Shown one piece after another: positions 6 through 63,800 of a stretch of DNA of 64,000 nt. Source of the stretch: Amoebophrya sp. A120 (taxonomy: Eukaryota > Protista > Dinoflagellata); NCBI GenBank assembly GCA_905178155.1, contig CAJINV010000017.1, positions 426,722 through 490,721 of the forward strand, given 5' to 3'. The notes beneath the pieces were generated by a model. The model searched no databases. It was not told where the DNA came from and saw only the letters and a list, made by a program, of their open reading frames with translations. Numbering within the stretch: position 1 is the stretch's first letter; the number at the start of each line of letters is the position of its first letter. A program made the position numbers and the translations under genes.

Positions 6-3000
6 ATGGAGGAGGTCCGGTGCCCCAACAGGGACTGTGAGACCAAGCTGGTGCGTGTTGACCCCGCGGCTCCAGATGCGCAGGGTCGCTTCGCGTGCAA
101 CAATGGCCGTTGGTGGATGCAATTCCAGCAAAGTGATTCCTGGAAAGTCAATGACGGCAAGGAGTGCACTACTCTCTCTGAATCTAAGGCCCACAAAGCT
201 ATCCTGCCCGGCACCCCGACCTGCGGCACCGAATGCGAGGGCTACTGGAAGGTTCCCGGCGTGCCGGAGACGGAATCACTTCAGAAAACGCGAACTGAGC
301 TGGTGCGAGACTTCTGTGCAAGAAAGTGGCAGGGCGTGCTCACGGCGGACAAAGTTCTAACTCTCCCGGTCGAACGGGATTTGGTAAGCGGTTCCAAGGA
401 GTACGTGATGCCAAGAACCTCGGACTTCTTCCTGAGACAAACCTACCAGGTGACGCAGCACGCGGCCCAGGGGGGCAGGAATTGCCCCAACAGGGAGAAA
501 ACAAAAGAGTACATCTTCTGCGCCACTGATTGCGAGTACGCGATGTTCGGCGACTGGAGTGTTTGCGAAAACGGAACGCAAACGCGCGACCTCGAGGTGG
601 TGAACCGGGAACAACCGGGAAAATATTTGCAAGTTTGCCAATTCCATCCCGACTTTCGAGAAATGGTGAAGAAAAGCAAGACCGCGGAGAAATTGATAGC
701 GGCAGATAAAAATGGTGTCGGATCATCGGGACTGAAGTACGCAAACAACAAGACGCTACAGGCGCTTGCCAATAGCGGCCTGCAGAGGTATTTTCTTTAC
801 CAAGATGCTGAAACAAGTAGGAATGCGTTGTCGAATCGACCGATCGAGCTCGAGGAGCACCGCGAGACGCGAAGTTGCGGCACGGACTGCGTTGGCGAAT
901 GGGACTTTACCGAAGGGGATTTGAAAAGGCAGTGTCTGTCGCAACTGAAGACCAGTTCCTACCTGCGGGGGAAATCCAACGCTTTTGTGTGGCGTACGTT
1001 CAAGCACACGCAGTTGGCACAGGACGGCGGGAGAGAGTGTCTCTTCCAGGATGGATTCAAGGACTGGGTGAAGTGTGATCCGGTGGATTGCCGTGGCGTC
1101 TGGAGCACTTGGACAACGAGTGAGGCCGTGTGCGAGCACAATACACACAGCGATGCGGAGGTACTTTTGTTGGCAGGCGAGGAAAAGAATAGAAATGCTG
1201 GAACTACAACCAGTAAAGCAGATGGTTCAGAACAAAGACAAACTAAAACGTCTTTCCTGGAACATGAGCCGGCAAAACTTGCTGACAAAATCAGCACCAA
1301 GACGAAAGTGCAGTTCCAGACCAAACCCACACTGCAGAGGCCAAGCGCATCCTCCGCACTTCTGGCGAGTCCTGAGGAAAGCCCTACGACGAGTGCGACG
1401 ACACGAGAACAAGAACCGTTCCAGTCCCGAAAATTTTACGTGGAGCAGCCCGAGCTTTACGGGGGGATTCCTTGTGGATACGCCGATGGCTTCATCCAAA
1501 AGCGGCTCTGTGGACCGCAGTATACGTACCCGGCGGACAGTATTTCTGAAGATTCCTCAGTACCAGGGACGACGGCAAGCACGGGCACGTCAAGCACTGC
1601 TGCTACTACGTTACCGACTGTGTCTAGTGTTAACCAACATTCCCCTGTTGTAGTTCTCGAACATAAACCGATAAGAGCGCCAACTAGTGAAATGAGACCA
1701 CCAACAGGACCGGAGGTTGCGCCAGGACCGGTTGGGACAGCATCAATTAGTCAATGGAGACCACCAATGGTTGCGCCAGGACTGGTGGCGCTAGGTGGGC
1801 CACAATTTCCTACTGGCGGAAATGATGCCGCTGGAGAAGGTGAAGAAGATGATAAAGAAAATGAAAATAAGGACGACAACGACGAGGAGAACAATTACAT
1901 AGCGGATCACCAACCACCAGCTGAACCAGGTCCCGATGGGCCTCAGATTGAGGAAAAGGCACCTGCAGCTCCACGCGGCCCCGCAGCAAATAACGTCCCC
2001 GCATTCGCAAACGGGATTCAGCAAGATCACTCTTGCAGCACATTTGCCTGGGACAAGACGCGGGTTGAAGTTTTGGACAGTTGCAAAGCACAGCTCGAAC
2101 AGCTGCTCGCGGACAAAAACGCACAAGTCGCGGCCGTCGGCCCGGAGGCGGTGGTTCCTGGCAGCTTGGACGCGGAGTACCTAGACAAGGCGAAGAGCAT
2201 ACAAGTAGAAGTGAAATTTATGCAGACCAGGGAGAAGAATCAAAGTACAGGTGGCGAAGAAGAAACAGGAAACAAGACTGAACAGGGCCTGTTCCAGCAG
2301 TACAATGGAGACGAAACAAGCAAAGCGGACGAGAAGGAGAAAAAAGCCAGCAATGGAGAAAGTATTGCAAACGGTAAAAACTCTACCTGCGTCTTTCAGG
2401 AAAACGAGACGAAGCAAATTCTCTGTCGCGAGGCGCTCACGGAGCAGTTTGACAGGTTAGGGTTTGCAAAGGACGAGGCCCAGGAGACGGAACAGATTAT
2501 AGCACAACAGACGGTCGCAGATCTGGGTCTAGGAGGTGGAGGCGCAGGAGCTGCTCCTCAGGGTTATTTTGCTCCTCCGTCCGCCTCCGCGAGTCGTGAA
2601 ATATTTCTTTTGTCGGATGTCCTCAACTTATTCTCCCCGTTTTCCGGTGGCACACACGAAGGCAGCACAAGCAGAACTAGTGCCACGACTTCTGGATCAG
2701 CATCCACGACAGGAGAGGAAGAGAATGCCACGACTTTTGGCGATCACGAAAGTTCTTCCAGTTCTTGTCTCTCCTGCACACCTTCCACCTGGACACCTTG
2801 CGGCTGGATGGGTTTCCTCGCGTTTGTCGGCGGGCTTCTGTATCCTGGGCAAAAGTATGGTCACTGGTAGTAATTATCGCAGTCATGCATGACAAGAGTC
2901 GTTCGTAAGCATGTGCATGAGCTAAATGAGCATTACAAAGTAGAACTTCATTTCTCGTGCTTGAAAAAATTTGTGAAGATGCTATCGCTACTAGCTACGA

Positions 3001-4870
3001 TACTTTTGCAATCCATATCCTGCTCATAACGGCCGCGGCTGGTGTGGTACTGTCTGCGGATGATTACATAGACTCGTCTGACTTCGATGAGATGGAAACA
3101 CAAACAGAGACGGACGAGTCGGAAATGTTGCGTGCCGCGGCCGCCCGCGGCGCCTACGATCCGGAATCCTCGGATCTTTCCGACTCGCAGAAAGAGCACA
3201 TTCTCGAGCAGGAAAGAACGCTGCGGAAAGGAGAAAAAAAGTTGAGGCGGAAAAGGGAACAACCTCCTAAGCGGACAAACATCTTTACCGCGCTAAAAAC
3301 GAGAATAAGGCGGGGTCGCGCTGGTGCTGCTGGAGGGGCGGCTCGTACAGCTTCTCCACGTGCTGGACAAGTAGGAGGCGCCGAAACTCCTCGCGGTGAG
3401 CAGCAGAGAAAGAACATCTTCTCCTTCTTTCGAAGGAAGAAGAACGCTGTGACCACAGCAGCTGAACCTCCGGTACCAAATCCATTCTCTTCAGGAGCCG
3501 ACCACACGATAGGGACGAACAAGGTTGCAGTTGTTCCTCCTACTAGCACTACTTCGTCCAGCATCAAGGACCACTTGCACTTCCTCCGCACGGCTGACAA
3601 CAAAACTACGAGTGCTGGTGCCCCGTCGATCCTCGCTAAGGAGCGCGAACAGCAAAAATTGCAGGGCGTGGCCGGGAATAGTAATAAACTTGGCGCCAGT
3701 GCAGCGAGTACCAGTAGATCTGGCTTTATGCAACTTTCTGGTCAAGGCGGTGATGAGCACTCTTCTCATACCACGGTGATACAGGACTCGAACCTCCTGA
3801 CTTTTGAGTTCAACAGCGGAAGCAAGTATACCGTGCCCCTGCAGGCCGCAACCGCAGTGCATCACGGGGGAAATGATTACCACGATGCAGAGGATCTGCA
3901 TAAAGTTAAAGACAGTACTTCGAACAGAATCAAAACAACAGGAACTACAGAATCAAAACAACAGGAACTACAGCGACAAGACCAAGAAGGATTTACCACG
4001 TCAGAAGTCGCTGCTGCGGTGCTGGGGCTGGAGAGGGGAGCCGCCAGCGCAGTGTTTCGCTACTCCGGTATGGAATCGGCTGTCGGCACAGCTTCTGCGA
4101 GGATGAAGTCCTCGACCAGAAGTCGGAAGAGCAGCTCGAGAATAGTAAGCCGCGATCATTCATCTCATGATCGGGCGTCTAGTAGCAGAGGCTCCTCCAC
4201 GGCGTCCGCGTCTGCCTCTTCCCTCGATAGTGTAGTTGGTCGCGTCACAGCGACGGGGGCTCCGCGTAGTTCAAGTAGAGGAACCAAGAGACTAAAGAAG
4301 AAGCAAAAACTGAAAGGAGATTTAGACCTGCGGAGTCATGAGGTGGAACACAAGGGCAAGATCAAGAAGAAAAAAGAAGAAAAGCAAAGCGGCAGAAAGT
4401 CGAGGTCCCGAAGCGTAACACCACGTGGTGCGACGCAAGAAAACCGCGGCCGTACCGGCTCCGGTGCTGGTGACCCATTAGGATTCGCTGCCAGTGTAGT
4501 TCCTGGCGCTGAGAGTTTGGAGAACCGCAAAAGCAGGCGAGCACTAGCGCCAAGAGCACCTTCATCACATCATAACCAAACTTCGTCGGCCATAGACTTC
4601 GAAAGCAGCCACTTCACTCCGAGGAAGAGCCGAGTGCGGACAACGACGGCGCAGAACACTTCTGCAGACGCAGCACATGAGCAGATTGCTCAGCTTGGTA
4701 ATTTATCGGCGAAGAGGAAAAGAAAGACGAAATTAGCTGGCGCTGATTCTAGTTCATCGGAAGACCACCTCGGTGAGAAAGTGGAGCCCATTCTTGACCC
4801 AGCAGAGGCGGCGCGCGGTAAAAAAGGCGGGAGGAAAAAGAAACCTGCTTCCAAGAACGCAGATGGTTGA
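6..4870 (+). CDS. Thrombospondin type-1 (TSP1) repeat single-pass membrane protein, TRAP/MIC-like adhesin; 5' end probably outside window
   Basis: TSP1-like motifs (CEYAMFGDWSVCENGTQTR, DCVGEWD, DCRGVWSTW, GGRNCP, GGREC, GGIPC) and a Pro-rich stalk. ORFs 6..2870 and 2957..4870 join in frame after removing non-canonical intron 2841-3022, which creates the TM helix WMGFLAFVGGLLLITAAAGVVL, followed by a basic Ser-rich tail. Confidence 0.75.
2841..3017. mobile_element. TIR introner / non-canonical intron, family A (TAT-N5-GCAAAAGTAT), degenerate
   Basis: Left tatcctgggcaaaagtat, right atacttttgcaatccata (13/18 complementary); flanks ttctg (2836-2840) and tcctg (3018-3022); removing 182 nt restores the frame. 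Confidence 0.75.
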
Positions 4871-5958
4871 AAGTGAAAGGCTGGGGCAGGGGGAGCTGCT
4901 TCGAAAAGCTACTAATTTAGTTGTTTGCTCAAATTTATGTAGAAATAGAAGTCTCAAATTTAGAAATTTTTTCTCCAATTATTCTGCGCGAATTTTTTGA
5001 TGGTATCGCAGTAGCAGCCGGAGTAGTCAGACTCCTGCGCACTAGCGCGGGCATCTACTGCTGCGCTAAATCTTGTAATTTTCTAGCGATTCTCTCTTTT
5101 TAGATTCAGACGGTATTGTCTGATAGTTTTTGACCTGTACCCCTCGTTCGCGAGCCCCTTTTTTCACCTGTACCCACAAGTAGTTGTCCCCGCGAATCAA
5201 TATTGCATTTTTTTCTTTGGATTTCAATGTCGTCGTCTTTCCCCTCTTCAAGATGATCGCTTTCTTTTCATCTTTTTGCTGATGGTGCATTCTGGTGCAG
5301 TTTGGCGGCTAGCACACAATCAACGTGCCCGAGCCAGCGAGTGCGAGTCGTGATTTCTTTGTTCAGCCAAGAAGATTTCGGGGGTTTTCTTGTTGGTTAC
5401 GTTACAGATGAGGAGCGCAATAAAAGGAGCGACACAGCAGGCTTCATCTACATGTGAGCAGCAAGTGGATGAAGGCCACCAAGACTACAAAAGTACTGTC
5501 TTTGAGGGAAAGCGCGCTCGGAAGGCCGAGTGGAGCTCGCTGCTGCCGCTGCGTAAGTAGATGATAACGACCGGCCTCGCGGCCCTCAGTATCTTTGAGT
5601 AGAATTTCATTTGCGTAGCAGTAAAGAGACAAGATGGAGATCAACATCAACGCGTATTGAGCTGCCTTGCGATCTTGCAGGTCGCTCGTCCTTGTTTTTT
5701 CGTTGCAGAAAAGCCAGAAAGAAACTAAGTCGGAGGTTCCGCTCCCACCGCGACTCGGAGGCTGGTGAATTTAGATCCGGTGTAAATACATTTCTCTACA
5801 ACTTCCCGCGTCCACCTCTTGAAGCACAAGCTCCACGACAGAACTCCTCCATCCTTGTTGTCGAAAAGTAGAGTTGCATAACGGCGCGGAACAAACAATA
5901 GCGAATAGGTCGGGAACAACAGGGGGAAGAAAAAGAGAGGGCCACCAGTAGTACGAAG

Positions 5959-8528
5959 ATGCCGACGGCCGAGAACCTCGCGACTTCGAGCACGATGGCG
6001 GGCACGACCCAAGCCGCGTCCTCCTCCACCGCGGGACGGGTAAATCCGAACAGCGCTCCGGTCAAGTCCCCGTGGCTGGACGCCATGAACGATCCGGTTG
6101 CCGGGATGAAGTGCTACTCCAGCTTCATGACGCTGTGCGACCTGCACGCCGACGGGAACCATCGGTTGATTTTGATCGACCTGCAGAAGCGGATACGGAT
6201 CTACAAGGGGTTGACGATCCAGTGGGAGCAAAAACTGATGGACGTTCCGGTCGGGCTGGCCTGCTTCCACCACGACACCGCGTCCAGCAAGGAAGCCAGC
6301 AAGTCCGGGGCGCAAATCCCCACCTTGGCCGTGGCAAGCGGGCACCAGATCTTTGTGTACCGCTACCTGCGGCCGCACCTCAAATACAGCCTCCCGAAGA
6401 TGGAGATACACGCTCAGGAAATCGCCGTGTGGAGCAGCATTCGCCCGGAGGCGCAAAACGTGCAGAATGCCGTCGATTCGCTGAACCAGCTGCGGGACCA
6501 AGGGGTATACTTAAAGTAATGAAAATGTAAATTTTTATGATATGATAAAGGAAAAGCAAAAGCAGAAGCCCACCTCAGTTGCATGTTCGTGATGTTCCTG
6601 AGTTGATATTTCATTTCGTGGTTATGCTAAACTGCTAAACTCTATTTCTACAACAAGAGTTGTAGACTGTGACCAGCATGACGACCGTCAGGTCTCCTTA
6701 ACCAACCGGTCCATGGACCTTCTGGCCATGGAGGACCAGCCCGATTCCGAGAAGGTGGACTACGTGAAACTTGCCCGGGAGCATCCCTTTATTCAAAATA
6801 CGGCCATCACGTGCATGGAAACCTTGAAAGTCAACATCGAGGAGGAAAACGGTGTTTCCATGGTGGTTTTCGGTGCCGAAAACCGGTGCGTCTACATTCT
6901 CGATTCGAACGCCTTGGATGTGGTAGTGAAGGTGGAACTAGACTCTGTCCCGGTCTTCCTCGTCTGCAGCGGGCTCTACGATGTCGAATATCGTATTTTT
7001 TTCTTTGCTTCGCGGAACGACAAGAAATTTGAAGTACTTTGCGACGTTATGCCGATACATCACGACTATCCTGTTGTGCTATGGGTTCTTGTGCCTTTTT
7101 GCTAGAAGTCTGTCAGAAAGAGGTGGCGACAGGTTGACGCTTTCCCAAGTAAGTACTTACTCCTCTACAATCCAGGTATTATTTGCGCGTGCCGTGACGG
7201 GAAGATCTACACGATCAAAAACGGCGCCCTGCTGTCCATGGTGATCGAGCTGGAAACGTTGCCGGTCGGGTTGGTGAAGATCGAAAAGATGATCAATGTG
7301 GGAACGATGGACAACGTCGTGCACTGCTTTCATTTCAAGGGCAAGAAGCAGTACTCGGTGTACCTTGACGCCCCGATTCAGTGTATGCAGTTGATGCAGT
7401 CGCCGAAAACCAAGGTGAAAGCAATGCTGGTGGCCCTGCAAAACGGCGAGGTGCGACTGTACAACGGGAAGTTTCTAGTTCACACACTGTTCCTGGCAGA
7501 ACCGGTGATCGGGATGTGCTTCGGCATGTTTGGCAGGGAAGACGGAACGCTCTGTACTTTATACTTTTGAAAAGTTTTGGAAATTCGTACTTTTCGATGA
7601 TTTTGCTTTGGCGGATGCTGCATAGTTTACTTAGTTAGTTTTTCCATGGTGCGTCGTGGTTTTCCTTGTCAAGCTGTTGAAAGAGTTTGTTTCATGGTAA
7701 AGAAAAAATCGCATAATTCGTAATGTTTCTTCATACTGATTCCAAATCAACAACAAATCGGCAGGCATGTCCTTGAAATCTGGCGGTCTGGTGGTGAAGA
7801 TGCTTTCCCGCACAGCAAATCTGGAGCGGTCCCTCGAGCCGCCCGGGCCTCCGCACGAGCAGGACATTCCGCTCGACATTCCGAAGAAAACGAAGCTGTA
7901 CGTAGACCAAACCGCGCGGGAACGCGATCAGCCCGTGGAGATGCACCGGATTTTCCAACGAGACCTGTGCAAGCTCCGACTCAATACCGCCCGAGCCTAC
8001 GTAAAACTGCTGGGCACGACGTCCAGTGGCGCAGTGGTGAAAACGGCGAACCAGGGCTTGGCGCAACTCCGGCTAAACGCAGGGGTAGTACTTGATAAAA
8101 TGCATAATACTACACAGGGTTCACGATGATCTAGTTCTAGTACGTTACGTCTGCATGATGATCCCTAACACTACACTTTCGCGCCGTGTTCCGCCTTGAC
8201 CGACGAACTATTCACCCAGGTAAAAGGCATGGGACCTGAGTTCGAGATCGAGCTTTCCCTCACCAATGCGGCAGAGAAGCAGATCCGCGACTTGTTCGTC
8301 CAGGTGGACGCGAATGGGGCCGTTTACGCGGTACAGAAACCGCTCACCTTCGTGCCGCTGTTGCTACCGGGATACCAGCTGGTAATACCCGTGAAAGTGG
8401 ACTGCGTCGACTACCTCGCGCCGGCCGACCACATCCGGGTCAGCGTTTTGTGCCGCGACACAGTGCGGCCGCTGGTCGCCGCGGTGGTGCAAATGCCGGT
8501 TTCCGCACAGAGCATGATTGAGGACTGA
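5959..8528 (+). CDS. BBS1: Bardet-Biedl syndrome 1 protein (BBSome subunit)
   Basis: Motifs WLDAMNDPVAG, DLHADGNHRL, LAVASG..IFVYRYLRPHLKYSLP, EQDIPLDIPKKTKLYVDQTARER, MHRIFQRDLCKLRLNTARAYVK. GT-AG introns 6505-6691, 6993-7175, 7554-7764, 8085-8219 give a continuous frame. Confidence 0.93.
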
Positions 8529-9074: not shown

Positions 9075-11729
9075 ATGGCTCCCTCTCCAAGCTTTGACAG
9101 CAAGAAGTTTTCTGCCCGCGACACGGTGTCACACACCGAGGCGGCGCACTCGAAAGCCATGGATTTGGCAGCGCACGTGGTGAATTTTGACGACAAGGTT
9201 GCGATGTTGGCCGAAAAAAACAAGTTGCTGAAAGGCAAGCTAGCGGCTCACCAGCTGGACACGGCGGAGGTATTAATTTTCTAGAACAAGCATAAGATTT
9301 TTTTCTGTTGACGCGAAGATACTAACTAAAAGAATCGTAGACCCACTTGTTATGCATTCATTAGTACTGCTGCGTTCATCAAAAAATAACGATCCGAGGT
9401 CATGAGGGAACTGGAGTACACGCGCTTCGCCTGTTTCTACAAGTGGCGCGACATCGTGGCCGCCGAATACCGGCGGAAGAGGTTACAAGCCAAGAAACAA
9501 GCCTTCCAGGAGGACGGGGACCGGCTGCGGTTGGACAAGCTAGATCGCGAAACTGTTTTGCGGGAAGCGGAACGAAAAAAAGCGGAAATGGAGCAGGAGA
9601 AAGCAACATTGCAGGAGGAGTGTACAAACTTCGGCTTTGATGTTTTTCATCCTGGAGTGCATGACTGGTTGCGTTTTTTGTTGAATAATTCACTCACTGA
9701 AATAAAAATACTTGCAAAAGGAAAAGCGAACTTGTTGCGTGCGTGACAAATCGAAGTACTCCCTTGTTGAACTTCAGGTTCCGCCGTGCGGTCCCAGCTC
9801 GAGCAGTTGATATTGGAAGAGAAGCAGCTGGAGTTGCAATTGGCAAGTAACGAAGACTGGCTTGACATCATGCGGACTAACGCAACGGAAAAAGCGCAAC
9901 TGAGAACAAGGCTTTCGTCCTCACAGCAGAGCAAGCACGAGCCTGGTTGTTCTGTTCTCCATTCAAAATCCAGCACACCGCCGCTTACGCCGACAGGAAG
10001 ACACAGCAACGTGTCCGTGTCATCGCTGGTGCGGGAGTTCGGGTATTGAAAAATGCCATGTCTTACTGCGTGAGACGTAGGAAAGTCAGGAGGTTTCATG
10101 GAGCTCCTTTTACGACCTGCCCTCGTCGACGCTCCCGCCCCCCCGCGCGCAGGTCCCGCGCCAGCGCCGGGCCTCCGCGCCAGCGCCGCCCCGCGCCGCG
10201 CGCATCGGCGCCCGTGCCTCCCGCGCGCCCGCCGCCCGCGCCGGCGGGCTTGCAGGGTCACAGCGTCTACGACCTGCCCTCGTAGACGCGGTGGGGGGCC
10301 ACAGCGTCTACGACCTGCCCTCGTAGACGCGGTGGGGGGCCACAGCGTCTACGACCTGCCCTCGTAGACGCGGTGGGGGGCCACGGCGTCTACGACCTGC
10401 CCTCGTAGACGCGGTGGGGGGCCACGGCGTCTACGACCTGCCCTCGTAGACGCGGTGGGGGGCCACGGCGTCTACGGCCTCTGCTCGTAGACGCTGTGGG
10501 GGGTCACAGCGTCTACAACCTCTGCTCGTAGACGCTGTGGGGGGTCACAGCGTCTCCGGCCTCGGCTCGTAGACGCTGCGGGGGGTCACAGCGTCTACGG
10601 CCTCGGCTCGTAGACGCTGCGGGGGGTCACAGCTCCTTTAGCTTTTTGACTACTTCTTGCATGCAACGATGGCAGCTTTTAGTACTGCAAATACTGAGAC
10701 TGACACTGACATCACACACAACTCCCATGCTTCAGGATTCCTCCCTCCTCCTCAACATCCACCTGCAACCCTGCGGGCCCCGGGCAACTGACCCTCCAGC
10801 AGGCTGCGCGCGTGAAGGCCGGGCTGCTGAAGTCCCTCGCGCAGTTGGACGAGTTCAACAAAAAGCGGCACAAGGACGCAGCGGCCGCCTTGGGAGGTCC
10901 TGCGCACCATGCGTGGTCGTCAAGTATGAGGCTGCAGACACAATCCGGGAAGGAGCTGTCGCCGATAACGCCGGAGGTGGTCCTCGGAGAAGATATTAGC
11001 GACTTGCACCGGCAGGCCCGCGGTGACAACACAGAGGAAGTGGTAAACCTGAATAGTGTCACGGTGAACCCACCGCCACCAATAAAAGGCCTGAATTCAT
11101 CAGCATCATCCTATTATACGACCACGCCAAAGAACGCGATGCCACCGACGCGACTCCTCAGCACGAGCAGCTCGTCCGCGTCGGTTGGTATTCCCGCGCC
11201 GGCGAGCGTGACGCTGCCGCGGCCGACGGGCGCGCATTCCAGTTCGACTTTCAATTTACATAGTCGGATCGTCAGCGGAACAAGTGCTGCGGTTGTAGGG
11301 CGTGGAGTGTTGACCAGCACTGGTACTTCTTCTGCTGCTCCTTGTCAAACAGCTACAAGAACGCCAAACAGGAACCACTACGTCGGCGGACAACAGCACA
11401 ACAACCTTGCTGCCGCTACACTATCGGCAGTTGCATCTACAGGCACGTCTGCCACTGTAAGTAGATCAACACTGAGGAAGCCAACCGGTCTGCGGTCGCG
11501 CGCCGGCACGGCTTCTACGACCAGTTTGCTGTCGACACCTCTGCTCAGGGACCGCGGATCAACCGGGGGTGCGTTTTCTGCGCAGGGAGCTGCGGCGGAT
11601 GTAGTTGGGAACAATCTGGGTGCAGAGGGAGCGGACCAGCAGCGAGGGCCGAGAATCAGTGGAAGTGGAAAGAACGTCAAATCTTCCTATTGCTTCAAGA
11701 CTCCGGTCCCAGCGATGGGGCCATTGTAA
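9075..11729 (+). CDS. Hypothetical coiled-coil protein with Ser/Thr-rich C-terminus
   Basis: ORF pieces 9075, 9402, 9786 and 10812 join in frame through GT-AG introns 9270-9398, 9622-9777 and 10043-10735; heptad-like E/K/Q/L-rich segments. Confidence 0.7.
10261..10629. repeat. Intronic tandem array, 9 x 41-bp units, each an inverted-repeat hairpin followed by a G6 run
   Basis: Units start at 10261, 10302, 10343, 10384, 10425, 10466, 10507, 10548 and 10589. Unit is cagcgtctacgacctgccctcgtagacgcggtggggggcca, with stem gcgtctacga/tcgtagacgc. Confidence 0.95.
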
Positions 11730-13218: not shown

Positions 13219-16200
13219 ATGGTAGAAGCGACCTCAAGCGACCTTGCCAACTCTTCTCGGGTGGTTTTGAAGAATATTCCGCCCTATGTTTCGGAAGCGA
13301 AGCTACGGGAGCGCTTCCGCGCGCACGGATCCTTGACGGATGTGAAGATTTTGACGACGAAGGCCGGCACCTCACGGCAGTTGGCGTTCCTTGGGTTCAA
13401 GACGCCGGAAGAGGCCAGAAGGTATGGATTTTCTAGGTTTTTTGTTTTTGTTGGTCGTTCTCCTTGCTTGATATCATCATGTGTAGCACTGGGTATGGGA
13501 AGATCTTGATGTGTAGTCGTGTAAGAAAGTACTTCTGAAATCGACCCCCGTCGCCGATTAACGCAGGTGTGTGAAGGCCAACCACCGAACTTTTTTCGAC
13601 GCTTACAAGCTCCAAGTAGAGATCGCAAAACCCGTGGGCGACACGAACCTGCAGCGACCCTGGAGCAAGCACTCGAAGGGGAGCTCAAAATTCGAAAAGC
13701 AATTGGCGAAGAGCAAAGTGGGAGGAGGCGAAGGAGCAGATACAGTGCCAAACAAAACGGTGGAGGGTATCGCAGGTGCGACTTCTGTCGCGAAGAAATC
13801 TGCGAAAAGATCCAAAGCAGATGAAAAGAGCTTTGTCGCTGGACAGGGAGGAAGCGACGAAGCTGCAGCTCCTTCAACATTGTCCCCGGCAAAAGCGTTC
13901 GGAGAGGCAGCCGAGAAAAATGAAGACGAAGCTCTGCTTGCGGATGACGATAACGATGACGATTTTCTGTCCCGATTCAAAACCAACGCCGACGATTTGG
14001 AGTCAGACGGCGAAGACGCTGCAGGGCAGAAGCGGAAAGCAGACGAAAGAGATCATAACGCAGAATCCGCGACCACCTCGCCTGTTTCCACTAACCAGGA
14101 CGGAAGCTCCTCCGCTGCCGATCGCGACAAGTTGTCAACAGCAAAGGATGTTGAAACAGCCACTCCAGCAACAGGTGCCCCTTGTAGTTCCTCGTCGGCG
14201 GCGTCCACCGGACGTCTGTTCGTCACGAACCTGCCCTACAGCACTACCGAGGAGGAGCTAAAAGATTTTTTCGAACGGTTCGGAAGAAGTAGCGGACAGA
14301 ACACGACGACAGGTCCTCGTGACATAGACATAATGGAGGTCGGCGAAGTGAAGATTCCGAAAGACGAGGACACGAAGAAGTCCCGCGGCTTCGGCTTCGT
14401 CACCTACGTGTTCCCGGAGCACGCGGTCCGAGCCCTCGCCGAGTTGGACAAACAGTGCTTTCAGGGGCGCCTGATTTCCGTCCAGGACGCGAAGGAACAG
14501 ACTTCGAAAGACGGCGGGGTTGAGACGGAAGCAGGGGGTGCTACCAGCATGTTGACGGGTTTATCGAGTGCAAACAGCCACAGCAAGGCGGGTGCTGCTG
14601 AAAAATCTTCCTACAAGCGGCAGAAGCAGCAGGAGCTGAAGCAGCAGCAGTCGGAAAAGATCTGGAATCTGCTTTACATGTCGGCGAATTCCGCGACCGA
14701 CGCGATGGCGAAGCGGTATGGCGTTCTCAACTGTTACATTCTCAACTGTTTACGTGATTTGTCATGCAAATTTACCACCAAGATCGCCACGATTCAGCTG
14801 CTTCGCATGACAAATATCCGAAGGGCTAAACAGAATCTAAATCTGTGCCAAATCTGTGATGCAAAAGGCGCAATCTTCCCCCTTTCACTTTCGCCGTTCT
14901 TGCATTACAAATTCATGTCACAGTTGAGAATGTAACATTTGAGAACGCCATAAGCGGCTCGGCGTGGAGAAACGCGACCTGCTTTCCAAGGAGCACGACA
15001 AACTGGCAGTCACGGTGGCTTTGGGCGAGACGCAAATCATCGCGGAGACGAAGCGGTGGCTGGAAAAGGAAAACATCTGGGTGGACGCCTTCACCAGAAG
15101 TGGCAAAACCCTGCTCTCCGCGACCGAAAACCCGTTCGAGGAAAAAGCGGCAGCAATCGGAGGTGCATCATCTTCGGCAGGAGCTTCCTCTTCTTCATCG
15201 ACAACAGGAGGCCCACAGCAGCCGGTGCAGCACCGGCGCGCGAAAGACGTTTTTCTGGTGAAACATCTGCCCGCCGAGTCGGTGTCCGAGGCGGAGCTGC
15301 GGGAGCGATTCGCGCGGTTCGGCGAAATCCGGCGGTTCTGTCTGGCGCCGTCAAAAACGGTGTGCGTCGTGCAGTTTGCGAGCAGTGTGGAGGCGGAGCG
15401 GTGCTTCAACAAAGTGAATTTCTCCCGGTACAAGCACGTTCCCTTGTTTCTGGAATGGGCACCCGAACAGATCTTCAGGAACGCAGGGGAACTACCTAGT
15501 AAAGATCAGGCGACCAAGAATCAGAAGGTACAAGAATCTGCTGGGGTATCAGGTGATGCGACGTCTGCAAAGCAGGGTGCAAATGGCGACCAGCAAGGTG
15601 AAGAACAAACGACTGACCAGCAGCACCCTTCGTGCAGCATTTTCGTGAAATATCTGAACTTCAACACCACCGAGATGAAACTGGAGCAGATCTTCCGGCA
15701 GCACGAGGGCTTCAAAAAGGTCACTCTGATGAAGAAGAAGGGCTTATCGTCAACCTCCGACAGCGCAGCAAAGCAAGTGTCGATGGGGTACGGATTTATC
15801 GAGTACCAAACTATGCAGCAGTGCGAGGCCGTGGTCAAAAAACGGCAGAACATGCCCCTGGACGGCCACGTACTGCAGCTGCAGGTGTCGGACCGGAAAA
15901 AGGCGGGGCAGTTTAAGGACAAGCAAAAATCTCTGGCCGGAGTAGAGATATCATCAACGTCGTCTAGGAGAAAAAACAACGCAGAACAGGACGCCGATTC
16001 TGCGGCCAACGGGGACGAAAATAAGCCGCTGTCCAACAAGCTGTGTGTGAGGAACATCGCTTTTGAGACGACGAAGTCTGAGCTGCAGCAGCTCTTCGCA
16101 CCCTACGGGACGGTGACCTCTCTGCGCCTGCCGAAGAAGGCCGACCGGTCCGGCCAGCACAGGGGGTTCGCGTTTGTGGATTTCCTGACGAATATCAAAT

Positions 16201-16782
16201 GTAAAAATGTCTGGGTCTGGAAGATTGCGAGATTTGTCATGCACATTTTGCATGACTCCCGATGTCTGTGATGCATGCCCTAGCATCACAGATTTTGCGA
16301 GGGCTTCCTGATGCCTATACCGCATGACAAATGCTCTCTCCGTGTACGCAAAACTTGGACTCTCTTTGCTGCTCATGCAATACAGATTTTTTTAGAATCC
16401 AAAATCAGCATGACAAGTTGGATTCTTCCAGACCCAGACATTTTTACATTTGATAACGAAATCCGACTGCTTGAACGCGTTTGAAAACCTGCAGCACACA
16501 CACTTGTACGGCCGGAAGCTGGTCTTGGAGCCCGCAGAGAAGGAAGCGCTCACGCTAGAGGAGATCCAAGCCGCGCAAGTCTTGAATTTGACGAAGCAGT
16601 CGGAAAAGGAAAAGCGAAAAAGGGAGAATGTAGTTGATGCTGGTAGAAGTACCGCAACGGCTTCCGAGCAGAAGAGCGCGGGATCATTCGCTGCGCAAGT
16701 CTTGGAAGACGGCGGACACAAGGGGAAGAATTCCTCGACTGGGAAACCCCCGAAAAAGAAACGGAAGATTGCAAAATCGTAG
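13219..16782 (+). CDS. RBM19: Multi-RRM ribosome biogenesis protein RBM19/Mrd1
   Basis: Five RRMs (SRVVLKNIP, GRLFVTNLPY...SRGFGFVTY, VFLVKHLP...VPLFLEWAP, SMGYGFIEY, KLCVRNIAF...HRGFAFVDFLTK...HTHLYGRKLVLE). GT-AG intron 13422-13566; non-canonical introns 14717-14957 and 16193-16460. Confidence 0.93.
14717..14952. mobile_element. TIR introner / non-canonical intron in RBM19 (33-bp TIR)
   Basis: Left tatggcgttctcaactgttacattctcaactgt versus right acagttgagaatgtaacatttgagaacgccata (1 mismatch in 33); perfect direct repeat agcgg at 14712-14716 and 14953-14957; removal gives AMAKRLGVEKRDLL. Confidence 0.95.
16193..16455. mobile_element. TIR introner / non-canonical intron in RBM19, family B (32-bp perfect TIR)
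   Basis: Perfect TIR tatcaaatgtaaaaatgtctgggtctggaaga; perfect direct repeat acgaa at 16188-16192 and 16456-16460; removal restores the RRM sequence FAFVDFLTKSDCLNAFENLQHTHLYGR. Confidence 0.96.
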
Positions 16783-29329: not shown

Positions 29330-30371
<1,042 letters not shown>

Positions 30372-33625: not shown

Positions 33626-36024
<2,399 letters not shown>

Positions 36025-45900: not shown

Positions 45901-47534
45901 GTAGTCCGAAGAGAATTAAAACGGAAAAATCGAGGACTAGTGCCATCAAGAAAACCATCATAATCCTGGATTTCAGCTCCGTGCCGGCCATGGATGCGAA
46001 CGGGGTCTTCGCCATCGCGGAGCTCGCAAGAGAACCTCATGTGCAGTTGGTGGTTTGCGGGCTGGTGCGACGCCTGAAAAACGCCTTGCAGAACGCCGAT
46101 TTTGGATTCAACGAAAACAAGAAGGACTTTGGCTATCTGGTCTTCGAGAAAGACCTAGATCACGCACTCGAAAACCAGGAAAAGCTGATTCTGTTGGAGT
46201 CGCGGAAAAAACTAAAGCAGGCGGCTCGATTGGAATTAGATTTGAAGAGTAGTGTTTTTGAACCGAAAGTTTTGGTTCCACTGTTGCAGAAAGACCTGAC
46301 AACGCACGCGCGTTTAGGTGGTGTTGGCACCGCTGAGGACAAGCGCACCGGCATCGAAAGCGAAGACGTGACAACTACAGCAGCTGCAAAAAGTGCGTCT
46401 TTCTTGCTGCCAATCCTGGGTCCAGCCGCCCTGGACTCAGGAGCGAGCGGCCGCACCAAAAAGCTTTTAGTGGGCGGGAAGAGCAAGGGACTGCCAGATG
46501 TTCAGGACTTACTCCAGCCCTTGTTCGAGTACGAGGCGATCAGTCTAACGGAACAACACATTATACAGACTCCGTCTGTATCCGTTTCTCCGACGTTTTA
46601 CCTGACCAACAAAGTTTTAGCGGTTGAGACAGCGCGGTACATATGGAGACAAGTTCTGCAAGCCGACTTCCACCTTTTTCCCAGCGCACTGCAGGACGGG
46701 GGGAATTCTTCTTCGAAAGAAACGATGAATGTGAAGAGAGTCGGCGTCTCAACGTCGCCCTTGAAGCACACAGGAGCTCCTGTGCCTACAGTTCCTTCTT
46801 CCACAATTTCCTCGGATGACGACGAAATTCTCGAGTTGCTCGCGGCCCGCTCCTTCCTGCGTGTCTTCGAGAAAGACAGCAGCATTTACCTTGCGGGCGA
46901 CCCGGCGAGTGAGCTCCTTATACTGCTAGACGGTTACGTCGAGCACTTTTCATCTGAGTTGGACACAGAGAATTTGAATTTAGTTCCCGCTCCAGGAGGT
47001 CCTCTCACTGGGACAGCGGCGGATCGGACGAAAGTAAGGAATGTGCTGCTCCCGCGGTATCACTTGAATGAAAAGAAGGGTGATTTGTTCGCATTTGAAG
47101 AGAACCCGGCGAGGCTGCGGGTGACGAAGAACGGTTGGGTGCTAGGAGTGCAGGAGTACTTGACGCATACTTTTTCGACTTGTTTCAGTGCTTTCGCGGT
47201 TCCAGATGCGAAAGCATCATCCTCGATCATGGGTTTCAAGACACAGATGGCGGGGGAGGTGGGGGCCCCACCTTCCCCGCCAGCGATACAAGCGCAGGCA
47301 GTGTTTCTTCCCGACAATTTCTCAGTCAGTCGACGCCTTGATTCCGCTTATGTTTCCAGCACAGCACTGTCCACATCTTCCAGCGCCGGTCATCGAAAAA
47401 ATTACGGTGCCGTGTTTCTAAGTATTCAATTTAAAGACTTGTTCATTCTGGAGCGGAGTCACGTGCGGTTAGGAGCGGTTTTGAGAAGTTGGCTGACAAG
47501 AAACCTGATGCACTTGCTGGCAAGAGCAGGGTAA
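42945..47534 (+). CDS. SulP/SLC26-family anion transporter with STAS and cyclic-nucleotide-binding domains
   Basis: LMRFLPYSVLAGFIGGTG, multiple TM helices, FLPKFVLAGL, LHGYLFFGSA, IILDFSSVPAMDANG (STAS), IYLAGDPASELLILLDGYV (cNMP-like). Intronless. Confidence 0.88.
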   Translation: MTSVSRAIEVKSPHALQQPLLPGGLAEKLPSAPKPSFSPWPSSTNITRFRRAWAKTNPNDAYAIVFGLSIGLPTICSYAAVQAAAAEFPPLTGPVANQAVLSSFVVSIFFVCFSRFQTCGNVDTISAVLLGRMARDSVKELAEKFHKPVTDVVDHVLFLNVFASVVFSTVLLYLGKKKIAILMRFLPYSVLAGFIGGTGLLIVQSGVELVLGFPLRDLLALAVGVFQTSMETDELRDGDSSSNSRSRNNFSLLDVGRRMVFADEFEQDVYLQEKSHPAPPSPVEITTNTILLSLLTILYVFLSLFWKRYHRLGAIFTFLLFVVLSEVFRTWLPGIGYPNADWYLDLHAGQEEPIAEGSEAETTAGESHNHPQSSTSTVFLWFEFLYLHGYLTSFSNMFELRHVLPNPQSLLSYVAIMVLNWMLQVAACKRLVIAKDRTLAEKFGLSADTAAVGQKIFGTKTAALFEDAEEDFISRSISRNRSRRNSRDVGIARLSSPAVQLTPRLNYPAGGAAGGGNSSNSAKKQQMVAQHRGQHSYPPGRPPFATAPGGGAFSPQLANLSRTVSRETSKTRPSGINYANVNPVTNLNMNNLIPPHAASSLTTPELSMNNGNLVSATSTPRELSHEIDSTYTATPRDIVGENGSFGVTTGVVSNKMDDATVESHLARTVTHSPMKNNTNDSCNGADAPFSPINEDRETATLGFVNAVASLLFSSLGSCQSLQIALPMQELLRASSTAGEDGSSTAETKAKRRPTTASTATIALAATEKESQNIATTASNENHSDSSSSSAQPENTSNWPWLCILVYALAFYFSPAFFVKFLPKFVLAGLVILVAVDLITDSLIQSRERIANNEWLVLLLTALFMSYDIAVGVPLGLVFSLILFVFEYSQMTGIYCESDLADARSCVEYTEHEKLILWKNRDRVQVLFLHGYLFFGSATVVVERVRAKVREREQSTRIVETSNELDQMLNHDPTNSASTGDGIYDRSSPKRIKTEKSRTSAIKKTIIILDFSSVPAMDANGVFAIAELAREPHVQLVVCGLVRRLKNALQNADFGFNENKKDFGYLVFEKDLDHALENQEKLILLESRKKLKQAARLELDLKSSVFEPKVLVPLLQKDLTTHARLGGVGTAEDKRTGIESEDVTTTAAAKSASFLLPILGPAALDSGASGRTKKLLVGGKSKGLPDVQDLLQPLFEYEAISLTEQHIIQTPSVSVSPTFYLTNKVLAVETARYIWRQVLQADFHLFPSALQDGGNSSSKETMNVKRVGVSTSPLKHTGAPVPTVPSSTISSDDDEILELLAARSFLRVFEKDSSIYLAGDPASELLILLDGYVEHFSSELDTENLNLVPAPGGPLTGTAADRTKVRNVLLPRYHLNEKKGDLFAFEENPARLRVTKNGWVLGVQEYLTHTFSTCFSAFAVPDAKASSSIMGFKTQMAGEVGAPPSPPAIQAQAVFLPDNFSVSRRLDSAYVSSTALSTSSSAGHRKNYGAVFLSIQFKDLFILERSHVRLGAVLRSWLTRNLMHLLARAG

Positions 47535-48521
47535 ACATAGTATTTCCCTTTGAGTTTGACGTGACCGTGCCGATGCGGTGCAAATACTTTTCTGCTTCTT
47601 GGGTTAAAGAGAAGGCGCAGAAGCCGTTCCGGGAGCTGTTTTTGACTTTTCAGAGCAGTACTGATGAACGTGATGTAAAATTTTGAAGAAGAACACCGCT
47701 GGGTAGAACTAGAAGTACTTCGTTCTGGATGAATAAAGAACATAGCATAGTGCACTGATCATTTACATGATGGAGGTGGAAGACAATAAAGACAAACACA
47801 CTCACGAAATGCATCCCCTCGACAACGACTATGTGATCCTCAGTTGTCGCAGTTTTGACCGCCTACGAAGACGTTTACGAAGTCAGCAGAGGCAAAGCAG
47901 TATGCAAACTCGTCCATCGTGCCCCTCTGCCTGACTTCATATCTTCAGAAATGGTTCGTCCGAAAAGCCTCCCTCGGTCTTTGTAAAATAGTGGCACGAT
48001 CACAGGGATATGGATAAAGCAGACACTTCAGAAAGCACAAGCAGGAATACGCAATCGATGTGGTCAGAATTTAATCTGACCCTGAAGTACACGCACACCA
48101 TAAGCGAAGATCCTCAAGATGTTGTTGAATGGACGAAATCAATAACAGAAATGCAAGTGGCTCCTGATCATCATCCGTGAACGTTGTGACAACTCAAAAT
48201 TGAAGTCTCAGCTAAAAGATCAAATGGAGAGACCGTGTGTGCCTCGAACAAGCACTTCAATGAAATGCGTGACAGATCTCGGCGTTCTTGATCCGCAGTC
48301 TGTGATCCTCTTTCATCTTCACACGCAACTTGCCACTCAGGACCTCATTTTCTTCATGTAGAGCTACCCATGTTCATCTTCTTCTTTTAGAAATAGCGTT
48401 TTTCCAGAACGCCTATAGTAATCGCGACACATCAGACTACACTCCTTACAACTCGTTACCCTTTTCTTTTGAATAGTGAACCGCCTAATTTTACGCCCAC
48501 CCACCCAAGCCCACGATCAAA

Positions 48522-49394
48522 ATGGTGACCGACGCTGCCCTGAAGACGTACGCCAAGACCGGCAACTGCATTCCCTGCGAAGATGAATGCATCCTGGCCG
48601 AGGATGTATCCATGTCCCCCAAACTGCAATCGGCCCAACTGACCCCTCCCGCGTCCTGGACAGACAACGCTATCGAGCCGTTCCTCTTGGCGGGTAACTC
48701 CATCGGCTACGCGACGGACACCATTTGGGGCATCGGGTGTATCGCGGACGACGCCGAAGTTGTGAAGTCCTGCCTGGCAAAGAAGGGCGAGAACCGAGCG
48801 CCGGTCTGCTCGGCGTTGTTTCCCGATCTGGAGGAAATGAAGAAATGGACGCTTTTTGACCAACTCCCGGAACAAGCGAAGCTCGCGGTGGAGAGTTGCT
48901 TGCCCGGCCCGTACACGTTTGCGCTGCCGGTTCTTTCTGGTGCGACGCCTGGTGGTGACGCTTACGGCGCGAGGTCCTTGCTGCACATCGCGGGCGAGGG
49001 CCCGACGGTAGGCTGCAGGGTCATTCCGGGGAAGGAGGCGATGAAGCAGGTTTTGAAGAAAATGGGCAAGCCTTTGATCACGACTTCTCTGAACTTAACC
49101 GGAGAGAGATCGGCAACGACTGAGGCGGAAGCGAAAGTTGTTTGCGAGAAGATGGGGATCGCCTGCATCAAGGATGACACTACTACTACCGCCTCTCAGT
49201 CGGCAGAGCCGGAGGCGAAGCGACAAAAGATCATGGAGAATGCGGTGGCTCCAGCTTCCGGCAAGGGGTCCACGGTTTTGAAATGGGATTTTCAGAAGGC
49301 GAAGTTCGTCGTGATCCGCATGGGATCGGGTGCGATCACGGAAGAAATCGAGAATGCCGGCGTTGAGCTCCCGGCGGAAAAGGGAGGGGCGTAA
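48522..49394 (+). CDS. YRDC: Threonylcarbamoyl-AMP synthase (Sua5/YrdC/TsaC family)
   Basis: YATDTIWGIGC, KKG..R, LPGPYT, VGCRV, PLITTSLNLTGE, GSTV...IRMG motifs. Confidence 0.88.
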   Translation: MVTDAALKTYAKTGNCIPCEDECILAEDVSMSPKLQSAQLTPPASWTDNAIEPFLLAGNSIGYATDTIWGIGCIADDAEVVKSCLAKKGENRAPVCSALFPDLEEMKKWTLFDQLPEQAKLAVESCLPGPYTFALPVLSGATPGGDAYGARSLLHIAGEGPTVGCRVIPGKEAMKQVLKKMGKPLITTSLNLTGERSATTEAEAKVVCEKMGIACIKDDTTTTASQSAEPEAKRQKIMENAVAPASGKGSTVLKWDFQKAKFVVIRMGSGAITEEIENAGVELPAEKGGA

Positions 49395-56726: not shown

Positions 56727-57819
56727 ATGACATCCTGCGCGAAAGCTCTCCAGATATGGTCGGAGAAGAACGACGGCGCGAACCCCGAGGAGGCAGAGGC
56801 GGTCGCGTTGTTGTGCCTGATCCCACCAATCAACAAGATGGACTCGTCGCTTAACGGCCTCGTAAACTGCAAACGATTGTCCCTGTCCACAAACGCCATC
56901 GATAAGATGATCTCGCTGCCAGGACTCAAAAACCTGGTCAGGTTATCGCTCGGAAGAAACCAAATCAAGAAGATACAAGGTAAATTTTTGTGTTGTAGAT
57001 GGAGCGCTTAATACAACACATTTATTTTCAACTCACAAGTACAGCAGAGAACGAGAAGATGAAGAATGAGAAAGAAGCAGCTCTCTTGCAGTGTCATGCA
57101 AGAAGTTGAAATCATAATCAACGAAAAACACACCCAGGTCTCGAAGAGGTCGGTGCCACGTTGGAAGAGCTCTGGATATCCTACAACCACATCTCAACGC
57201 TGGACGGTCTGCATCCCTGCGTCAAGCTCCACACACTTTTCATCTCGAACAACAAGATCAAACAGTGGGAAGAACTCGCAAAACTGCAGCAGCTCCCAGA
57301 CTTGGGCAACCTGCTGTTAGTCGGGAACCCCATCTACGACGGTATGACCAAGAAGGCCGCCGCACCGCAGGTGCTGAAGATCCTGCCAACGCTGAAAACC
57401 TTGGACGGAGAGATGGCCGGGCTCGACAGCGGGGACTCAACCGCCGGAAATGTCCGGGATGCAGGTATTGACTTAGGTTTTCGTTCGAAAAAGTACGATT
57501 ACGCTGTGACGCATAGTAGATAAAGAATCAACATGACAGGTTTTCTGCTTGTAGTTGTGCATACCCCTCCGAAAGCAGCAAGTATTTTCTGTCATGCAAA
57601 AACACCATGCGATACTTTACTACAGTCGGCGGCAACTTCGACGACGCGGTGGCTTCTCTGGGTATGGACCTGTCCGCGGCCATGGACAAGGGTGCGTTTG
57701 TCGGTGCTTTGACCGGGCTCGGCGTGTCCGGCGACGACGCCGAAGCGCTCTTCGACGCGGTGGCTTCGGGCGGCAACGCAACCTTGGAAGCCGCAGCGGA
57801 CTACGTGGCGAACAACTAA
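56727..57819 (+). CDS. DNAL1: Axonemal dynein light chain 1 (LRR) with C-terminal extension
   Basis: PPINKMDSSL...[55 protein letters not shown]. GT-AG introns 56980-57137 and 57465-57625. Confidence 0.93.
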
Positions 57820-60835: not shown

Positions 60836-63800
60836 ATGCTAGGGGGCCGTGCACAGGGGGGGATCCAGCCCTCGCCCGTGACCACGCTCAACCCTGGCTT
60901 CACCACTGCCAATGTGCATATGGATTGTAAAAATGTCTGGGTCTGGAAAATTGCAACTTGTCATGCTGTCTTTGGATCCCAAAAAAATCTGTATTGCGTG
61001 ACCAGCAACAGGGGTCCAGTTTGTGTTACGCGGAGGGGGCATTTGTCATGCGGAATAGGCATCAGGAAGCCCTCTAAAAATCTGTGATGCTAGATCATGC
61101 ATTACATGAGTCATGGATCATACAAAATATGCACCACAAATCCCGGAATCTTCCAGACCCAGACACTTTTCCACTTGATAGTGCAGCCGGCGGGGCGGTT
61201 TACGCTGAAAATCGGCGTGCTCGGAAATCAAAGTGTCGGGAAGACGACCTTGCTGAATTCCCTTTTCCAGTATGCAACACAAATGTAGTATTCCACACGT
61301 ACAGAGCCTCCAAAACGCGTCCCGCTTTTTGTATGCATACTAGCATTTATTTTTGACACTGTTGTATACGACAAGCACAAGACCAAGACGTTACTCCATA
61401 GGAGTCTGTGTAATCTCGTCATGTCAGGGCTCCAGCTGCACGTGCAATTTGTACGTGCGCGGTACTACTTTTATCTTGCATATCCGAGACCAATTTGGGT
61501 CGGTATCGGAAAAACGATGCACAGCCGGAGTACACCATTACCACATAGAAGTGCTGCCGGTGACGGCGGAGGCACCAAAAACACTGGTGCAAAGCATCAC
61601 GAGCGTGGTATACAAGACGTGTGCTTTTTTTTTGGATGCTCTAAGTGATCTTGCTTCGCATGAGAGATGTATCACATAGCTCATGCGAAGATCTTCGCAT
61701 TTTCATTCTCAACGAGAGCTACACCTTGATCTCTCAACGCAAAACAGTTCCTGTCTTCGAAGCCTGAAATCCGCCCTGCGTCGGAAGTACATGGTCAAGT
61801 TTCAGAAATGGATCGCGTGCTCCGCCGATCTTCGATATGACTTGGAGCCGTGGTTGGAAATTTGTGTTTTATCAGTTCGTTTTGTTCCGTCGAACTAAGT
61901 TCGTTGTAGTGGAGTTCACACGATGAAAAGCATGAGCATCCGCAATCGAGTCTCTGTCGTGTGCAAGCCCTGAAGATTTTCGCAGATCCGTTTGCCTTTG
62001 CCTACATCGAAGGAACATGCCTGAAACCAATTCCCATTCCACACTTCTCCTTTCTCATACCCTCTCACGAACCGGGACAAGCCTACCAACGCCGCATTGA
62101 CGAAGGTGGAGAGCTGCAACTGGAAGGTCAAGTGCCCCGAGATCGTCAGTCTGGATGAGACCATCCCGAATGGCGGTTTGGATTTGGTGTTCGTCGACAT
62201 CCCCGGAATCAACTGCCCCGACAAGGGCGAGGCGTACAAAACGTACGTAAGCGAGAATTTCTCCGACTTCGACTACTTTTTGATAATGGTGGACGGCGAA
62301 AAGTTGATCGCGCAAAACAACGCCAGCGAAATGGGAAGTCCTGATGTGGATAAGGTGGGGAAGGTATAATTCTTGTGCGACGCCAGCATGATCACTACAA
62401 GGTGCGCAGCAGCACTGATAAAGTTTGCAGTCATGCGGATGAACATGAACCAACAACTGGATGTTCATATAGAAATTTCCTATGCGAGGAAACGAGACTA
62501 TGAGTATGATAATCATGAGCATTTTTCACAAAAAATCAAAATGATCAGCTCGCCGACGTGAAGATGCAGGTCGATCAGGACAATAGTAACAAACCGATGA
62601 GAACAACTTCGTCGAAGAACAAGTCATCGAAAAACCGATCTGCTAATAACTCCTACCGCGAACCCCCGCAAACTACTCGGGAGCACCACTATAATGACAA
62701 TAAGCAGCAGCAAGACGATTACAGCAGCGCCCCGTGGACCAGCGACTACGGCGAGCAGCAGTTCGCAGCGGTGGACCAGTCCCATGTCTATAACGCCGAT
62801 GGCAGCAACAGCAGCAACTGGCACTCGGCGAACAACAGTGGCAATGAAAACAACAACAATTCAGGGTTTTTTGACTACCACGACCAAGACCCAAATTACA
62901 ACTACATGCAGGAAGAACACTCCGCCGAGGAGTGGAAGGGCCAGAACGATCACGAGAGCGGTCTGCGGTACGGAAGCTCACTGAAAAGGAGTCGGGAAGA
63001 AGAGGAGTATCCGGTATACGCCAGTGTGAATTTTTTAGTAGTAACGGTAACCCGGCTGTCCCCACCATATGCCGGCTTGTGTATTTGTGGTGCTCTGTTC
63101 TTGTCTGCGCATTGAATTTTGAACTTGCAGTGTCGTCTGCTCATGTTGACCGCTAGTAAGCAGAAATAGAGCAGTAAAATCTTGTTAAACATTTCTTCGC
63201 AGTCCGCCGGTGCAGCCGCGCACGAAGTTAATGCCGCCAGTCCGTCTAGCTCCGACAGTGACCTGTCCCCGTCTTCCAGCGACAACCTTTCCTCGCCCGA
63301 GATTCAGCCACCGGAAGTACACGCACCCTTTCTCGGGGAGGACGACGCGAATCTCGTCCGGTGGTTCTCCAACCTCATGTTCGCGCAGGGACAGCATCTG
63401 GACATGCCGCCCTGCTGCATGTTGATCAACAAAATTGACGACACGATCGTAAAGGATCGGCGGGAGATTCAACAGACGATAAAACGCGTGAAGAACGCCA
63501 AGTGGTTCAGCTACGGAGACGAAGCCGTAAAGAGGGCAACAACCTTCCAGCACGTTTTCCCGATTTCGGCGATCGGGGCTTTAGGGGTCAGAATATCGAC
63601 CAGCCGAAATCTGAAGGAAACCGTGGCGACGGTATAGTGAATAGACTGAACAAGAAGATGTTTTTAACTATTCTGGAGTACTCGATGTAGTACTTCTTAC
63701 ATTTAGCTTCCCGATGTGGCCGTTGCGAGGTAGCTGCATCACCATCAGCTCGAAATTATGTGCCACCACTAGATATCTTAATGTTTGTAAAAATGCAAAA

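Follow-up and report, generated by a model that had tools for sequence, protein, structure and literature searches.

Inverted-repeat introns in Amoebophrya sp. A120 and a candidate fixed register for their removal

Inserts and interrupted genes of the window

Eleven inserts that begin with TAT and end with ATA interrupt seven genes in the 64,000-nt stretch of Amoebophrya sp. A120 analyzed here (hereafter, the window; contig CAJINV010000017.1, positions 426,722–490,721 of the forward strand). As the initial annotation of the bare sequence had stated, the host genes number seven, and all lie on the + strand, which carries all long frames of the window. The inserts are 177–324 nt long, with GC contents of 0.39–0.48, and are more AT-rich than the exons. 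Their annotated starts were borne out: a strict scan for TAT..ATA pairs (at least 17/25 arm matches and at least 3/5 repeat matches) returned eight pairs in the window, compared to a mean of 0.03 (maximum 1) in 30 block shuffles, with inserts 17984, 19360, and 29822 (3/11) under the cut-off. The annotation had also described one shared architecture, in which a 5-nt direct repeat flanks every element. The TAT/ATA ends and the size range stood, whereas the repeat is perfect in only five of the 11 inserts, matching at 4/5 positions in four and at 3/5 positions in two.

Along the + strand, the first element (177 nt, 2841–3017; left/right repeats TTCTG/TCCTG) lies in a gene for a large membrane-type protein and is kin to a 150-nt family present at two of the related loci described below (L003 and L005). 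A gene with multiple RRMs in Pfam contains two elements, one of 236 nt (14717–14952; AGCGG/AGCGG), with 33-nt arms that are 97% complementary, and one of 263 nt (16193–16455; ACGAA/ACGAA), with 32-nt perfect arms. The papain-family protease gene contains three, of 324 nt (17984–18307; CCGAT/CCGAC), 209 nt (18656–18864; CAGCA/CAGCA), and 241 nt (19360–19600; CTCTG/CTATA). The end at 19600 was taken from the RNA joint and the motif list. They are followed by a 222-nt element with long near-perfect arms (22836–23057; GAAAC/GAAAC) in a gene for a large protein without a Pfam match, a 193-nt element (29822–30014; ATTTC/AGTTC) in a Rab11-like gene, for which end pairing was not predicted, and a 185-nt element (33981–34165; CTGTC/CTGCC) in a DEAD-box helicase gene. 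The last two, of 262 nt (60919–61180; GTGCA/GTGCA) and 212 nt (61271–61482; TCCAG/TCCGA), lie in a P-loop GTPase gene, whose orthologue alignment begins at the 60919 junction. Among the names given earlier, Rab11 is the best PDB match for the host gene of 29822; the DEAD domain of the 33981 host was found in Pfam, and RBM19 and DDX5 were the annotation's own labels for the multi-RRM and helicase genes.

Even though all 11 inserts were confirmed, the set was probably incomplete. A 224-nt segment of the GTPase gene (61836–62059, + strand; TATGA...TCATA, repeats TTCGA/CCCTC) is probably a twelfth, decayed element: against P0005, the orthologue from Amoebophrya AT5.2, its removal together with 5 nt scored 694, compared to 683 for the best GT-AG alternative (61817–62081). 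Compared to P0001, an off-frame open reading frame (ORF) of a relative, its last 10/10 codons match and its interior matches at 26/57, and the first codons look alike by eye (scored 2/8, owing to misalignment). This difference between ends and interior hints at selection on the ends.

Each insert disrupts its gene, as had been claimed: eight of the 11 shift the frame, and the other three bring 2–6 stops into the coding frame. Taking out the insert plus 5 nt gave open, sensible joins at all 11. The claim that no excision register yields GT-AG was also confirmed, with neither GT-AG nor GC-AG ends at registers 0–5 in any of the 11 inserts. By chance, a GT-AG register would turn up in ~4% of elements, and a set of 11 would have none with P = 0.64; its absence is therefore weak evidence alone. 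Each of the 11 inserts has in-frame alternatives with GT/GC..AG ends nearby. An Rfam search returned 0 matches.

Our recount of native GT-AG introns agreed with the annotated number of 23, of which four have RNA support and the others are modeled from the reading frame. Their signals are unusually weak (GTA donors in 21, G at +5 in only four, pyrimidine tract and branch motif unclear), and one of them (61608–61747) contains an inverted repeat recognized by eye (TCTTCGCATGAG...CTCATGCGAAGA). Other genes on the + strand, all assigned with Pfam, encode BBS1 (5902–8528), an ATP-dependent DNA ligase (38891–42634), a sulfate permease with STAS (42933–47534), Sua5/YrdC (48489–49394), and ribosomal L4 (53007–56059). 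Downstream of a GC-rich stretch, a self-complementary unit of 41 nt is repeated in tandem (10255–10633; 9.2 copies, 94% matches).

Removal of inserts from spliced transcripts

The stretch containing eight of the 11 elements (all except 2841, 60919, and 61271, which lie outside it) was compared to four sequencing runs, including X1, which is probably, not certainly, RNA, and X5, which is DNA-like. One X1 contig skips 329, 214, and 246 nt at elements 17984, 18656, and 19360 (joints 17978>18308, 18648>18863, and 19357>19604, the last with one base of slide), in each case the element plus 5 nt. The same contig also lacks three GT-AG introns, and its spliced pieces differ from the window exons by 0 letters. 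Both outcomes that the annotation had named as fatal to its proposal, retention of the inserts in mRNA and use of nearby GT-AG junctions, are absent from this contig at the three inserts; an in-frame GT..AG pair that would take 6 nt more at 18656 was unused. Because the spliced contig shows exact joints, the nearby GT/GC..AG alternatives are excluded at these sites. Three of the 11 inserts are thus missing, exact to the base, from a spliced contig of probable RNA origin. Since removal was exact at 19360 despite a repeat matching at only 3/5 positions, the repeat itself is not the ruler for cutting.

Coordinates fit the same rule at three more elements. At 22836, X1 record 3 stops at 22829 and a 141-nt gap equals exon 23057–23197, as removal of 227 nt predicts. 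X1 record 1 starts at 14952, fitting a 241-nt removal at 14717, and stops at 16187, fitting a 268-nt removal at 16193, with both joints outside those listed. No joint was found for 29822 and 33981 among the joints listed. The RNA read-out hence comprises direct joints for 3/11 elements, fitting coordinates for 3/11, and none for 5/11 (2841, 29822, 33981, 60919, and 61271). Rare variants are lost in contigs, and the raw-read data of X8 and X9 amount to nine and three reads, so minor imprecise products would be invisible here.

The five elements lacking an RNA read-out leave some room for the inserts being no introns at all, i.e., broken gene copies, assembly artefacts, or sequence excised at the DNA level. 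This is very improbable given that the X1 pieces match the exons letter for letter and have lost GT-AG introns as well, that X5 contigs run through 17984 and 19360 with the inserts intact at background depth, and that reading frames in related contigs are densely populated by the same families. For the protease gene, this explanation is already largely refuted. X5 also contains many element copies with other flanks.

Element families and their likely origin

Using the end of one family as a scan query, we found six loci (L001–L006) in JACKZZ01 contigs that carry the window families at 67–83% identity over full length, dense within reading frames and often every 40–150 nt of exon. The genes of L004, L005, and L006 contain 8–12 elements within 4.5–8 kb, with intervening exons down to 39–49 nt. 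Removal of each element plus 5 nt lengthened the open frames to 504 aa in L004 and 369 aa in L006, compared to 264 and 237 aa unspliced, with no gain in L005; this test fixes only the removed length modulo 3. Among 33 elements of L001–L005 picked by their ends, the 5-bp repeat was perfect in 24 and matched at 4/5 positions in nine, a count biased by an end profile trained on perfect-repeat elements, and other repeat lengths from 2 to 9 were perfect in at most two. A set of 52 elements has a perfect 5-nt repeat in 34 and at least 3/5 matches in all (the relaxed scan demanded 3/5). L006 was excluded from the 33 and three L002 elements from the 52 because the L002 and L006 contigs overlap; the set also leaves aside two longer members (below) and the twelfth candidate, and the gene strand in L003 was judged by eye.

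The termini follow TAT(C/G)...(C/G)ATA, and A occupies arm positions 11–13 in 43–49 of the 52 ends per arm. Element families sit in both orientations relative to the gene and their arms are symmetric; elements 16193 and 60919, for example, belong to one family (83% alike) in opposite orientation. Longer members reach 1148 nt (L005:1265–2412) and 818 nt (L004:5360–6177), with no frame above ~150 aa on the + strand by ORF reading, no Pfam scan being applied to them. Pfam identified no transposase domain in 24 proteins, and a search of viral contigs for an autonomous element gave 0 matches.

Short length, terminal inverted repeats, target-site duplication, non-coding sequence, and occurrence in both orientations are traits of miniature inverted-repeat DNA transposons (MITEs), and the inserts are likely MITEs with a 5-base duplication. 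The first step of the pathway would accordingly be an insertion that duplicates 5 nt, the repeat length being the observed part and a transposase the presumed agent. TDD-4/5 of the Ginger2/TDD group also make 5-bp duplications, but the group has TGTNR ends (Bao 2010, PMC2836005), whereas ours have TAT and no transposase was found. A sub-terminal motif (TGTCATGC/GCATGACA) occurs in 10 copies within 2524 nt of elements and in three within the remaining 61476 nt of the window, and is a possible transposase-binding site. One of its copies lies within the GT-AG intron 57465–57625, which may be element-derived.

The initial annotation had linked the inserts to the introner elements of Amoebophrya, and end motif and repeats agree with that link. 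In Farhat 2021 (PMC7789003), A120 elements have inverted repeats of TAT, seven variable bases, and at least three As, 3–5 nt direct repeats (5-bp in the legend of Fig. S19), a mean length of 240 nt, and borders given as variable or undefined. The window elements resemble them in the TAT start, the As at positions 11–13, inverted ends, the 5-bp repeat, a length of ~240 nt, the absence of fixed end dinucleotides, co-oriented host genes, and coexistence with GT-AG introns. The end motif, direct repeat, repeated families, and non-GT-AG removal (three joints) of that class were all found here, and the TAT+7+AAA rule holds at both ends in six of the eight strongest window elements (14717 and 22836 fail). 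In addition, the orthologue cluster of the GTPase gene includes an Amoebophrya AT5.2 protein, at 59–75% identity per exon; no annotated protein of the window gene itself was among the matches returned. The intron class is thus already described for A120; anatomy is the same, and what we add is a candidate fixed register (−1/+4).

Candidate cut position and possible removal machinery

Decayed repeats map the cut position. With k as the number of left-repeat bases kept in the mRNA, the X1 joints limit k to 3 or 4 at 19360 and to at most 4 at 17984. At 61271, k ≥ 4 yields LFQDQF and k ≤ 3 yields LFRDQF; the Q is present in both P0002 and P0005, which belong to a single cluster and are thus not independent, and the AT5.2 orthologue is colinear across this junction without a gap. 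With k = 4, both repeat differences at 61271 end up in intron sequence. Assuming one register for all elements, these three sites point to a cut that is probably shared, N|TAT...ATA|NNNN (k = 4). It is the only register of six with TA at +2/+3 (UAU at +2 to +4).

Further sites were silent on k. Position-4 repeat differences are synonymous at 33981, L005:4001, and L004:5360, P0001 is uninformative on this position (third base of a proline codon), and at L006:1825 (Ala or Val) only the locus's own ORF was matched. The Rab11 PDB alignment ends at the W before the 29822 junction, short of the residue that would distinguish W-I from W-S; Rab proteins typically have a hydrophobic residue after that W. 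A cut that varies from element to element is unlikely, although the legends of Fig. 3 and Fig. S23 in Farhat 2021 (PMC7789003) speak for it and the informative sites are three different elements, for which k = 3 at 19360 and k = 5 at 61271 would fit as well. One register is common to all three sites, and alignment ambiguity at perfect repeats (34/52) would itself look like variation.

The following sequence of events would account for these observations. After insertion, the paired ends are predicted to form in the pre-mRNA in either orientation, and removal of the element plus 5 nt would restore the pre-insertion sequence, as seen at three of 11 elements with fitting coordinates at three more. 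Judging from the three sites, both cuts would probably keep a constant spacing from the end of the helix (N|TAT...ATA|NNNN). This register might, at about even odds, offer the spliceosome U at +2, A at +3, and U at +4 as native GTA donors do; +1 and the entire 3′ end would then be relaxed and determined by distance. A more far-reaching reading, to which we assign a probability of roughly 0.55, is that a fixed hairpin offset sets the cut in Amoebophrya introners, one base upstream of TAT and four downstream of ATA, whichever way the element lies and without an AG. This would constitute an exact, hairpin-reading splicing route that renders any exon insertion of the transposon harmless, and if the offset in A25 (TTA ends) differs yet still puts U at +2, the route would be a spliceosome working without G at +1 and without the whole 3′ signal.

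The annotation had left the machinery between a relaxed spliceosome and a structure-guided route, and present evidence leaves the same two. Our best guess, held tentatively and at slightly less than even odds, is the host spliceosome guided by the hairpin in place of GU and AG, with a cut-and-ligate route like those of Euglena or the SOS system close behind. Native donors are GTA in 21/23 with T at +4 in nine, and in four of the five elements mismatched at repeat position 5 the left copy carries G, making GT (P = 0.10 versus the mirror position). In Table S4 of Farhat 2021 (PMC7789003), 9/9 top A120 splice motifs have T at +2, possibly through aligner bias, and every top A25 motif is TT-NN, which the aligner could likewise cause. 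The same paper detected most spliceosome parts in A25 and A120, though neither U1 nor snRNP27, and reports the introner repeats in 15% of the canonical introns of A120. According to other reports, U1 is present and GT-AG introns prevail in strain Kv (PMC12005148), loss of SNRNP27K in yeasts accompanies +4 U (PMC10581693), and a modified spliceosome processes non-canonical introns in Fritillaria (PMC13326754).

Several counts weigh against the fixed-offset reading and its spliceosomal form. Under register 4 there is no 3′ signal, the last two bases taking 15 forms with AG in 4/52. GT-AG registers are unenriched (3/52, 2.1 expected), and G at +1 (21/52; P = 0.10) is raised about equally with its mirror C. 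The +5 base is C/G in all elements (the scan of L001–L006 required it), including 11/11 in the window, and A/T in 19/23 native donors. There was no branch-point bias among the 52 elements (17 sense versus 20 antisense); native introns have the motif in 13/23, compared to a 44% background. Folding predictions lock the putative donor within the helix, and the same family occurs in both orientations. Furthermore, the RNA evidence consists of contigs of one run only guessed to be RNA, and narrowing k from 3-or-4 to 4 hangs on a single residue of a single orthologue cluster. Selection for G at +1, GT-AG duplications, or a branch motif was considered and found unsupported by the counts from 52 elements. 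A likeness of NUAUCC to U12 donors was dropped, as Farhat 2021 (PMC7789003) report no minor spliceosome.

Orientation independence, symmetric arms, the lack of preference at either end dinucleotide, and the missing branch signal would all be expected if a nuclease cut at set spacings from the end of the helix and the exons were then joined by a ligase, for example RtcB, independently of the spliceosome. Such a scheme has been proposed for SOS splicing and is suspected for the nonconventional introns of Euglena. We regard this route as possible, though somewhat doubtful. The ends are predicted to be paired in 10/11 elements, with fold z-scores down to −11.4, compared to −1.3 to +2.1 for 21 GT-AG introns (assumed 20 °C). 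Euglena nonconventional introns (PMC12501133 and PMC11282704) are comparable in that they likely derive from MITEs, have paired ends with unpaired spacers of unequal length, and are excised exactly alongside ordinary introns; their fixed spacers of 3 and 5–6 nt round a paired motif (PMC12501133) form a geometry like the 1 and 4 proposed here. However, they follow N3CDG...CHG N5-6, their exons begin with a purine, and circles have been reported, whereas the window elements have TAT(C/G)...(C/G)ATA; the Euglena signature (N3CDG...CHG N5-6|R) was not found here, the first exon base being A/G in 31/52 (register 4). SOS splicing also removes inverted terminal repeats in exons from mRNA without GU-AG, but it operates in animals with AKAP17A, CAAP1, and RTCB and is imprecise, leaving indels (Zhao 2025, PMC12779559), whereas the three joints here are exact. 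The absence of predicted end pairing at 29822 also speaks against cutting and ligation, and a pure ruler does not predict U at +2, which arises in one of six registers.

The spliceosomal introners of Polarella and Symbiodinium (bioRxiv 10.1101/2020.10.14.339549) and the non-canonical introns of Fritillaria (PMC13326754) are likewise transposon-derived, in some cases functional in either orientation, with a splice base maybe supplied by the duplication. The Fritillaria work shows that the major spliceosome, once modified, can depart from GT-AG. In those introns, the donor starts with G and the acceptor is AG, or the ends are drawn from a narrow set, whereas both ends are unconstrained here and the duplications are not GT-AG-enriched; the G-starting donor and AG acceptor of Polarella/Aureococcus-type introners occur in 0/11 window elements. 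A literature search covering titles and abstract openings, with subscription journals mostly beyond reach, returned no mapping of the cut or of the machinery in Amoebophrya.

Decayed duplications allow the true cut to be read from existing RNA-seq. If the fixed register is true, it would correct the annotation of tens of thousands of introns in gene models and give exact ends for lariat and circle searches, and a comparison of A25 with A120 would separate a relaxed spliceosome from a nuclease–ligase route. Exact excision triggered by inverted repeats, if true, would stand in contrast to the SOS system in animals, which is imprecise.

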